DNA from: Nanobdellota archaeon
Lineage (GTDB): Archaea > Nanobdellota > Nanobdellia > Pacearchaeales > GW2011-AR1
Direction of reading: 5' to 3'
DNA: 48,652 bases
Assembly (NCBI GenBank): GCA_023397215.1
Contig: JAEWUG010000010.1
Location: forward strand, 1-48,652
A program made the position numbers and the translations under genes. Position 1 is the stretch's first letter; each line of letters opens with the position of its first letter. The notes under the pieces are model-generated. The model saw only the letters and a list, made by a program, of their open reading frames with translations. It had not been told where the DNA came from and ran no database searches. Below are positions 4,730-8,143 of the stretch, piece by piece.

Positions 4730-7700
4730 TTACTTTTTTTTCTCCTTATTTTTATTTGCAAGTGGGCCAGTTACTTTAACTAAAAGACCTGGTAAACCAG
4801 TTCCAACAGGCACAGGTTGATTTAAAATAATATTCTCAATAACAGATGCAACATTATCTTTTATTCCAGTCTTTGTAGCTTGAACAAATTGCTTATCAGG
4901 TGTTTCAAAAGAAGCTCTAGCTAAAATTGAATTTTTATCTGAGATAATACCCATTCTTGTAATACCCTTAACAATTCCAGAAGCAGTCATTGTGTCTGCA
5001 ACTAAATTTGCATGTTTATCATCTAAATCTAAACCTTGAGATATTAAAACTTTTTGAATTTCATTAATTACAACTTGACGAGCAGCTTCAATACCTAAGA
5101 CATTTGCTACTTCATGTAAATCATTAGAACTAACTTTATTTACATCTACTCCTTTAAACTTTAAGATGTCCTTTAAATTAGAACCAGCTGTTAAAATAAC
5201 AAAATCTTTACCTTTTTTAACTACTAATACTTGAGATACTTTTTTAACCCCAGAAAAAATAACTTCTTTTATCTTTTCCTTAATCTTATAAATTGTTTTA
5301 AAATCTTCTTTAGACATATCAAAAATCATACCACTTTCTGACTTTTTAACATCATAACCTTTATCATTTAATGTAGTAATAACAGTATCTAAAGTAGTAT
5401 GTGCTGATCTTAATGATTTAGAATCAACACTAATTTTAATTTGTTTAGTACCAAAATCAATAGAAATATCTGACATAATTTCTTTTAATTTCCTTTCTTT
5501 AATTTTTTCAGCAATAATTCTAGCATCATTTTCATTATTAAATTCTTTATCTAAATAAATTTCCATAGTAGGTAATTTTGGTTGTTTTCTTGCATCTAAT
5601 ATCTCAATTAATCTAGGTAAACCAGTTGTAACCTGCATTTCAGCAACACCAGCAGCATGGAATGTATTCAATACCATTTGAGTAGATGACTCACCAAATG
5701 ATTGAGCTGTAACTAATCCAACAGCTTCACCTGGAGCAATCTTCTCACTTTTATGTAAACCAGCAACATCAAAACCGTCAGTACCATAAATAAATTCTAT
5801 AATTTTACCAGAAGCATCTCTAATTGTACCATCATAAGCTACAATTAAATCTTGAAGTGCATTTGCAAGTCTTCTATATAAATAACCTGATTTAGGTGTT
5901 CTAAGAGCAGTATCCATTAAACCATCTCTACCAGTTATTGCACCAAAGAAAAATTCTACAGGCCCTAAACCGCCCATAAAAGAACTTTCAATAAAACCTC
6001 TAGCTTTAGGAGATAAATCACCTTTCTTAAAAAAAGGTAATGTTCTTTGAGTATAACCAAAATCAATTCTTTTACCATTTAAAACCTGTTGTCCAACACA
6101 ACAAGAGATCTGAGTTACATTTAACATACTACCCCTAGCTTTAGAACTGATCATATTATTTACATTATTATCCTTAGGGAAATTATTTTTAACAACATCA
6201 CCAATTTGAGTTCTAACTTCATTTAAAATTTGTAAAATTTTTAATTCTCTTGTTTCTTCAGCACTTCTACCAGGTAATAATTCTAAAGAATCATTATAAA
6301 AAGATTCGATTACTTCTTGAGTCTTTTTATCAGCAGTATCTATTATTTTTTTAGTTTGTTTTTGAGTTTCTTCTCCAACATGTAAATCATCTAAAGAAAT
6401 AGTAAAACCATTTCTAGATAAAAATGTAACACCCAAAGCAAAAACTTTTCTTAATGTTTCCATTGCTTCTGTTCTACCCATCTCTTTATCAATAATTTTT
6501 AAATCATTACCAGATTCTTTTCTAAAACCAAGAGGTTTCATACTTTGATTTTTATATTTTTCTGGTAAAACTTTTGAAAATATTGATTCTCCAGAATTAT
6601 TTTTATTTAAATTAAAGTTTTTAACTCCAGCTGAATAAAGTAATTGGGAACTTTCTGCATAATCTAAATCTGTTTGAAGTAATAAATGATTTCCAGTAGC
6701 AGCATCATCAATACATCCCATTAAATTCATATTATTTTTAGGAGAAAATAAATTATTATTTACATTTAATAATATTTCAGATTCTGCTCTTGCTTCTTCA
6801 TTTTGAGGACCATGAATATTCATTTCATCACCATCAAAATCAGCACCATAAGGATTACAAGAAGAAGGATGCATTCTAAAAGTTCTAAAAGGTAAAACTC
6901 TTACAAAATGAGCCATTAAAGAAGCTCTATGTAATGAAGGATGTCTATTAAATAAAACAATATCACCATCAACTAAATGTCTTTCAACAATATAACCGGG
7001 TTCAATTTCTTCAGCAATATTATCTCTTAAGTCTTCGGTAATTCTTTTTCTTTTTCCATCAGGTCTAATTACATAATTAGCACCGGGATAATCTACAGAT
7101 AAAATTAATTTTTTACATCTTTCGAGATTAAATGTAGTTACTCTTTCTGCAACAGTAATTATTTTTGCAATATCTAAAGGAACACCAACTTCATTAATTT
7201 TTAAATTTGGATCTGGAGAAATAACAGTTCTAGCAGAAAAGTTAACTCTTTTACCTGCTAAATTCTTTCTAATTCTACCTTCTTTACCTTTAATTCTCTC
7301 AGTAATAGTTTTTAATGGTTGACCACTTCTATGTCTTGCAGGAGGAACTCTTGCAATAGAATTATCAAAGAAAGTAGTTATATGGTATTGTAATAAATCC
7401 CATAAATCTTCAATAATAACCTCAGGAGCACCTGCATTTAAGTTTTCCCAAAGTCTTTGATTTGCTCTAATTATATCTGATAACTTATGAGTTAAATCGT
7501 CTTCACTTCTTTCACCTGATTCTAATGTAATAGAAGGTCTAACAGTTACAGGAGGAACCATTAATAAAGTCAAAATTGCCCATTCAGGTCTTAATGTTTT
7601 TGCATTTATTCCTAAAATTTTTAAATCTTCATCAGAAACTTTTGCTAATCTTTCTCTAATCTCACTTGGGAATAATCTTCTTTTACCTACTTTAAATGTA

Positions 7701-8143
7701 GAAGGTTTTTCTAATTTAACTCTTTCTTGAACAATACCACAATGAGGACACTTTTTACCATCTTTTGCTTTTTTAATTCTATCTTTTAATGGTTTTTTTA
7801 AATCATTTTCATCTTTAATTAAAACTTTACCACAAGCTTCACAAGTACTTCTTAACACTACATCAAGAATTGGGATATATTTTATATGAACAACAGGACG
7901 AGCAAGTTCAATCATACCAGGATGACCTAAACATTCTTTTAATCTACCACCACAGGTTCTACATCTAACACCAGGATCAATTGCACCAAGTCTTAAATCC
8001 ATTAAACCACCGTCAACAGGATAACCATCAACATCATAAAGCTCAGGTGTAACAATTTTTGCAACACTAAGTTTTTTAATTTCCTCAGGACTCAAAAGTC
8101 TAAAACTCATTGCATTAATTTGTTTTCTTATTGTTTCAACCAT
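4730..8143 (-). CDS. rpoA: DNA-directed RNA polymerase subunit A, with A' and A'' fused in one ORF
   Basis: 1137 aa. Zn clamp 'CRTCGG...C', catalytic '[11 protein letters not shown]' and bridge helix '[22 protein letters not shown]'. The trigger loop '[21 protein letters not shown]' and the A'' C-terminus '[15 protein letters not shown]' then follow in the same frame without a stop. Confidence 0.95.
   Translation of the reverse strand: [1137 protein letters not shown]

Follow-up and report, generated by a model that had tools for sequence, protein, structure and literature searches.

A single-gene rpoA with a shortened junction in a Pacearchaeota-like archaeon, very probably a secondary fusion

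Archaeal RpoA, the largest subunit of RNA polymerase (RNAP), is known in two versions, an A-type in Thaumarchaeota, Korarchaeota and Bathyarchaeota and an A'A''-type in Euryarchaeota and Crenarchaeota (Da Cunha et al. 2017, PMC5484517); that thaumarchaeal rpoA is one gene has also been described separately (PMC4084955). For the archaeal root, Da Cunha et al. drew a parsimony argument from which lineages have a split and which an unsplit rpoA, deeming such events rare (PMC5484517), and stated for rpoA "a secondary fusion in Pacearchaeota" (Da Cunha, Gaia, Gadelle, Nasir, Forterre 2017, PLoS Genet, PMC5484517, S29 Fig). We analysed the rpoA gene of a Nanobdellota archaeon in a 48,652-nucleotide (nt) stretch of DNA, the whole of which we call the window (assembly GCA_023397215.1, contig JAEWUG010000010.1). 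An earlier reading of these letters, the original prediction, had proposed that the gene is a single fused A'-A'' open reading frame (ORF), starting from the premise that archaeal RNAPs have a split largest subunit. That premise is too broad, as rpoA is a single gene in Thaumarchaeota, Korarchaeota and Bathyarchaeota (PMC5484517, PMC4084955).

The closest described system is the fused RpoA of Pacearchaeota, which shares with the window the lineage (named Pacearchaeota metagenome-assembled genomes lie inside the window's clade), the gene and the conclusion of a secondary fusion. The fused ORF of the window sits in a clade with named Pacearchaeota genomes, nested among split Nanoarchaeota and Woesearchaeota. 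Relative to the published report, which consists of one sentence and a figure (PMC5484517), we find no difference in kind; what we add is how far the fusion extends across the order, how large the deletion is and where it lies in the structure. Fused rpoA in Pacearchaeota is real but already known, and its novelty is not upheld. The original prediction had itself allowed for a fusion that is common and documented in this lineage, and this is the case: it is order-wide and was reported in 2017 (PMC5484517). We found no further mention of an rpoA fusion in the literature on Rpo1N/Rpo1C fusion, in a survey of archaeal gene fusion and fission (PMC11237513) or in a 2026 preprint on Nanobdellota genomes. 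The fused rpoA of the window is of little weight in itself, being a documented marker of the Pacearchaeota lineage.

The split Rpo1N/Rpo1C subunits of solved structure (PDB 2PMZ, 2WAQ, 4QIW and 8CRO; Sulfolobus, Thermococcus and Pyrococcus) resemble the window in domain order, catalytic elements and operon, and E-values to archaeal PDB chains reach 1e-246 (A') and 1e-77 (A''). The window differs in encoding one polypeptide, in having no counterpart for ~25–27 C-terminal residues of A' and ~50–55 N-terminal residues of A'', and in carrying two further deletions, one of 18 amino acids (aa) following residue 118 and one of 19 aa following residue 528. Eukaryotic Rpb1/Rpc1 and the A-type subunits of Thaumarchaeota and Korarchaeota likewise run as one chain from clamp to cleft. 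In Rpb1, however, the bridge helix and trigger loop are joined through a foot of ~174 aa (residues 883–1056), whereas the window has neither this foot nor a C-terminal domain. Compared with the thaumarchaeal and korarchaeal A-type, the unsplit state of the window is very probably derived and not ancestral, as judged from its position among split DPANN sequences and from the junction deletion.

One reading frame and a shortened junction

The rpoA of the window is a real single A'-A'' ORF, as the original prediction had read it, and both halves are carried by one 1137-aa product with the following parts:

4730..8143, minus strand: rpoA, single fused A'-A'' ORF (P0001), 1137 aa, ATG start (ORF list, translation, Pfam, NCBIfam and PDB matches)
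5765..8143, minus strand: A'-equivalent part, aa 1–793, with clamp, active site, pore/funnel, bridge helix and a conserved segment up to GTDGFDV (NF006336/TIGR02390, Rpo1N PDB chains)
6827..6847, minus strand: metal-A motif GADFDGD, aa 433–439 (alignment)
5855..5962, minus strand: bridge helix, ~aa 728–763 (aligns within Rpb1 772–882; model helices 728–745 and 750–763)
5735..5764, minus strand: fusion linker [10 protein letters not shown], aa 794–803 (alignment, translation, model)
4733..5734, minus strand: A''-equivalent part, aa 804–1137, with trigger loop, jaw, cleft and clamp-core C-terminus (TIGR02389 positions 37–361; Rpo1C chains from residue 49–59 on)

The five Rpb1 domains follow one another in canonical order (PF04997, PF00623, PF04983, PF05000 and PF04998), with Pfam E-values from 1e-82 to 8.5e-7 and all scores above the gathering thresholds. 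Among NCBIfam models, the A' model NF006336 matches the fused ORF at 1043 bits, and the A'' model TIGR02389 matches aa 798–1117 over model positions 37–361 of 367. Residues 3 to ~793 match Rpo1N chains and residues 791–1123 match Rpo1C chains of Sulfolobus, Thermococcus and Pyrococcus in the PDB. Between GTDGFDV, which ends at residue 793, and PGEAVG, which starts at residue 804, there are ten residues only, without a stop or a change of frame, and two ORFs with a break between bridge helix and trigger loop, as in split A' and A'', are not found in the window. The bridge-helix string (from residue 738) and the trigger-loop string (from residue 804) quoted in the original prediction are both present in the translation, and its placement of the junction at about nt 5735–5790 is correct. 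The host bin (596 kb, 49 contigs, 83% complete) is AT-rich, and at the ~25% G+C of the window so long an open frame could not have arisen by chance.

Comparison with split relatives locates what is missing. In Woesearchaeota-like (Woese-like) relatives with split genes, the conserved segments on either side of the junction lie 184–266 nt further apart than in the fused genes. In the alignment, the fused proteins have lost ~14 residues from the end of A', the stop codon and, from the start of A'', ~45 residues; 60 junction columns are empty across the whole fused clade to which the window belongs (the Pace clade; occupancy 0.008). Positions 1–36 of TIGR02389 are unmatched in the fused ORF, and the window contains neither the A' C-terminal tail nor the ~50-aa A'' N-terminal segment.

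Two smaller deletions lie elsewhere in the protein. One removes 18 aa after residue 118 (nt ~7787–7790) in the clamp-head region, and this segment is missing from the whole Pace clade; the other removes 19 aa after residue 528 (nt ~6557–6560), where the match to domain 3 is weak, and is not uniform within the clade. Together with the junction deletion they amount to 97 of the ~100 residues that are missing relative to Woese-like RpoA, which explains the shortened product of 1137 aa that the original prediction had pointed out.

The position of the junction deletion can be read from solved structures. Relative to yeast Rpb1, aa 690–800 align to residues 772–882 and aa 801–890 to residues 1057–1147, so both the bridge helix and the trigger loop are represented, and the foot (883–1056) has no counterpart. 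Aligned to the Sulfolobus chains, as proposed with the original prediction, both halves match while the end of A' and the start of A'' stay unaligned: A' is alignable up to residue 855 of 880 only and A'' from residue 49–52 only. The Thermococcus chains give the same picture: the alignable part of A' stops at residue 879 of 906, and that of A'' starts at residue 56. Because of these alignments to Rpb1, Sulfolobus and Thermococcus structures, the fusion appears to have removed a small archaeal remnant positioned where the foot of eukaryotic Rpb1 sits. An AlphaFold model built on 45 fused sequences had a mean predicted local distance difference test (pLDDT) score of 74, with values of 75–87 at the junction, where a short helix (793–798) leads into the first trigger-loop helix (808–816). 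The whole model superposes best on single-chain Rpb1/Rpc1, with template modelling scores of 0.61–0.64. From the natural linker and the ~60-aa deletion one obtains a minimal way of joining the bridge helix to the trigger loop, which could serve the design of single-chain recombinant archaeal polymerases.

The catalytic elements, namely the three metal-binding Asp residues, the bridge helix, the trigger loop and the Zn clamps, are retained. D435, D437 and D439 of the metal-A motif are invariant in the 45 sequences; the trigger loop reads [13 protein letters not shown], keeping the conserved Gln, Leu and His; and the Cys/His clusters of the clamp zinc sites are conserved (C61, C64 (at least 90%), C71 (at least 90%), H74, C101, C104, C132 and C135). 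The metal-A motif departs from the usual sequence at residue 433 (nt 6845–6847), where Gly (GGT) stands in place of the universal Asn of NADFDGD (AAT/AAC in relatives). In other polymerases this Asn contacts the ribose of the incoming nucleoside triphosphate. The GADFDGD form occurs in 10 of the 120 loci, the window and nine close relatives, all in the window's genus-level group, where it is found in two subclades with Asn-bearing sequences between them.

Distribution in relatives and origin of the fusion

The fused gene is not peculiar to the window. All 21 evaluable genomes of its genus, in addition to the window, have one open frame of 1136–1201 aa; this count leaves out two genomes without a match and one with only a fragment at a contig end. 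A further 27 genomes of the window's family are also fused, and in eight other families of the order each of the 15 genomes with a match has one frame, of 1133–1203 aa. The same single ORF is thus present in every evaluable genome of the order, ~60 species, down to 56% identity, and a separate check of all Pace-like loci (L001–L051, L065 and L112–L120) found that the bridge-helix segment and the trigger-loop segment share a frame without stops. The nearest named relatives are labelled 'Candidatus Pacearchaeota archaeon' (for example L020, L023, L027, L031–L033, L039 and L041); others carry the labels Woesearchaeota or Nanoarchaeota.

We built a maximum-likelihood tree of 64 RpoA sequences, concatenating A' and A'' for split genes and removing the junction columns. 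The 29 fused Pace-like rows form one clade (Shimodaira–Hasegawa-like approximate likelihood-ratio test 100), which is sister to 26 split Woese-like rows (support for the pair 97); the split sequence of G322 (L111), from another order of the same class, branches outside both groups. The outgroup phyla are mostly split (86/100, ~38/50 and 38/41 genomes). The RpoA phylogeny and the DPANN survey that the original prediction had suggested have returned one fused clade, order-wide fusion and mostly split outgroups.

Because the fused clade is sister to split Woesearchaeota-like sequences, we conclude that the fused rpoA is very probably a secondary, derived re-fusion at the base of the Pacearchaeota/Pacearchaeales lineage. 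The original prediction had left the choice between such a lineage-specific re-fusion and an ancestral unsplit state, kept from before the archaeal A'/A'' split as has been proposed for Thaumarchaeota and Korarchaeota. Tree and junction deletion support the former. Retention of the ancestral state might appeal to the unsplit rpoA present in some archaeal phyla and to the debated roots of DPANN and of Archaea, yet the fused clade is nested among split lineages, with split Woese-like sequences as its sister and split G322 outside both, and many independent splits at exactly one site would be required, given the mostly split outgroup phyla. Moreover, ~60 aa that are conserved in split archaea are gone at the junction, so the state is derived by deletion. 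We regard an ancestral origin as very unlikely.

The presence of fused rpoA in other DPANN phyla raises the possibility that the gene was gained by horizontal transfer from one of them. The Pace sequences, however, fall beside the Woese-like sequences from the same class (support 97–99), apart from the other fused sequences; constraining all fused rows to one clade lowers the log-likelihood by 355 units, and this single fused clade is rejected by the approximately unbiased (AU) test (p 6.7e-9), run on an 18-row subset of the 64-row alignment. Linker sequences differ between the lineages and the operon context is native, which leaves transfer extremely unlikely. There is next to no probability that the fusion is an artefact of assembly or sequencing, such as a missed stop or a frameshift at the junction. 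The bin is indeed a fragmented, AT-rich metagenome bin, judged here from assembled sequence, but the same ORF and short junction recur in ~60 independently assembled species from many studies, no long homopolymer was found at the junction, and the sequence for the A' tail and A'' N-terminus is simply absent.

Several points weigh against a derived re-fusion in this lineage. The RpoA tree has no root other than that set by the chosen DPANN outgroups, which leaves parsimony and the deletion to give the direction of change, and the junction comparison covers DPANN relatives, Sulfolobus, Thermococcus and yeast. Support at the junction comes from assembled sequences, and the single polypeptide is predicted from gene sequence. 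Finally, we infer the order name Pacearchaeales from the inconsistent labels of relatives (Pacearchaeota, Woesearchaeota and Nanoarchaeota).

The re-fusion very probably started from an ancestor in which A' and A'' were neighbouring genes, an arrangement that persists in the sister Woesearchaeota-like lineages. An in-frame deletion of roughly 60 codons very probably took the A' C-terminal tail, the stop, the A'' start and ~45 N-terminal codons of A'', joining the post-bridge-helix segment to the first trigger-loop helix via a linker of ~10 residues. The resulting enzyme has no foot-like module but keeps the other catalytic elements. We infer that this deletion occurred in a single step, and the benefit may have been simplification in a reduced genome, with one gene, a fixed 1:1 stoichiometry and simpler assembly.

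Among the other genomes of the class, 18 with open frames of 1200–1319 aa were considered as further fusions and rejected, all being split genes parted by a single in-frame stop; the '1 TGA' entry of G035 does not interrupt the fused ORF. The split locus of the other order (L111, G322:C28) has A' and A'' in frame, truly split by one TGA, with a junction of 93 nt versus ~200; this short-junction form could be an intermediate or a re-split. In L064 and L071 the A'' ORF is 850–869 aa long and ~1.6–1.7 kb are inserted between the bridge-helix and trigger-loop segments, probably as an intein in A''. In about one-third of Woese-like genomes the query finds three matches each (best E-values around 1e-205 to 1e-215), which suggests an extra alignment break near the variable residues 528–545 or an additional split of A'.

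Fused rpoA and rpoB across DPANN

Fused rpoA is also found outside the order. In the phylum of L086/G438 (labelled Micrarchaeota) it occurs in 7 of 100 sampled genomes, with 6 more broken by in-frame stops only; in the phylum of L068/G437 (labelled Altiarchaeota) in ~12 of 50; and in the phylum of L087/G439 (labelled Aenigmatarchaeota) in 3 of 41. L055/G436 is a further fused rpoA with a short junction outside the Pace clade. These genes resemble that of the window in being single ORFs in which a short junction separates the bridge-helix segment from the trigger loop; they differ from it in their linkers and their positions in the tree, where they adjoin split relatives, so that at least four state changes are needed. 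Because the linkers differ and the tree positions are separate, the DPANN fusions outside the Pace order appear to be independent events.

The state of rpoB varies as well. It is unsplit in all 25 sampled genomes of the window's family and split in 32 of 32 evaluable Woese-like loci, and within the order it is polymorphic (families f3 and f7 split, f4 mixed, and f2, f5, f8 and f9 fused). Since three Pace-like loci (L039, L040 and L042) combine a fused rpoA with a split rpoB, re-fusion of rpoB seems to have been later than, and separate from, that of rpoA.

We consider it likely that the A'/A'' and B''/B' split is unstable in DPANN, with four or more re-fusions of rpoA (affecting the Pacearchaeales-like order as well as parts of three other phyla, each with a shortened, foot-less junction) and one or more of rpoB within the order; this had previously been reported for Pacearchaeota rpoA only. 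Fused forms in four DPANN phyla and the polymorphic rpoB fusion within one order would make the rpoA split homoplastic in reduced genomes, and if recurrent re-fusion is true, parsimony arguments for the archaeal root that build on the rpoA split become weaker. The wider rpoA, rpoB and GADFDGD extensions draw on non-independent samples and unrooted gene trees, and we offer them as leads.

Operon context and neighbouring genes

The genes around rpoA, all on the minus strand, are as follows:

11402..11596, minus strand: rpoH (Rpo5), 64 aa, its end overlapping the rpoB start (NF007129, E 1.2e-14)
8145..11402, minus strand: rpoB, unsplit B''-B' ORF, 1085 aa, directly upstream of rpoA (Pfam, NCBIfam)
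4069..4488, minus strand: archaeal NusA-like gene downstream of rpoA (TIGR01952, E 5.8e-17, under the family cut-off)
3602-4024, minus strand: ribosomal protein gene S12 (Pfam)
3006-3602, minus strand: ribosomal protein gene S7 (Pfam)

The order rpoH-rpoB-rpoA-nusA-S12-S7 is that of the canonical archaeal RNAP operon. A search of the genome bin found no separate A'' and a single rpoA locus. As the sole rpoA of the genome, placed in the standard operon, the fused gene should encode the working polymerase subunit. For annotation, pipelines that expect A' and A'' may report a missing subunit in such genomes.

Beyond the operon, a 340-aa ORF at 11829-12851 (minus strand) combines an N-terminal P-loop kinase-like region (AAA_17/AAA_18/CoaE-like) with a C-terminal dCMP/cytidine deaminase domain, and it adjoins a dUTPase gene (12886-13311).

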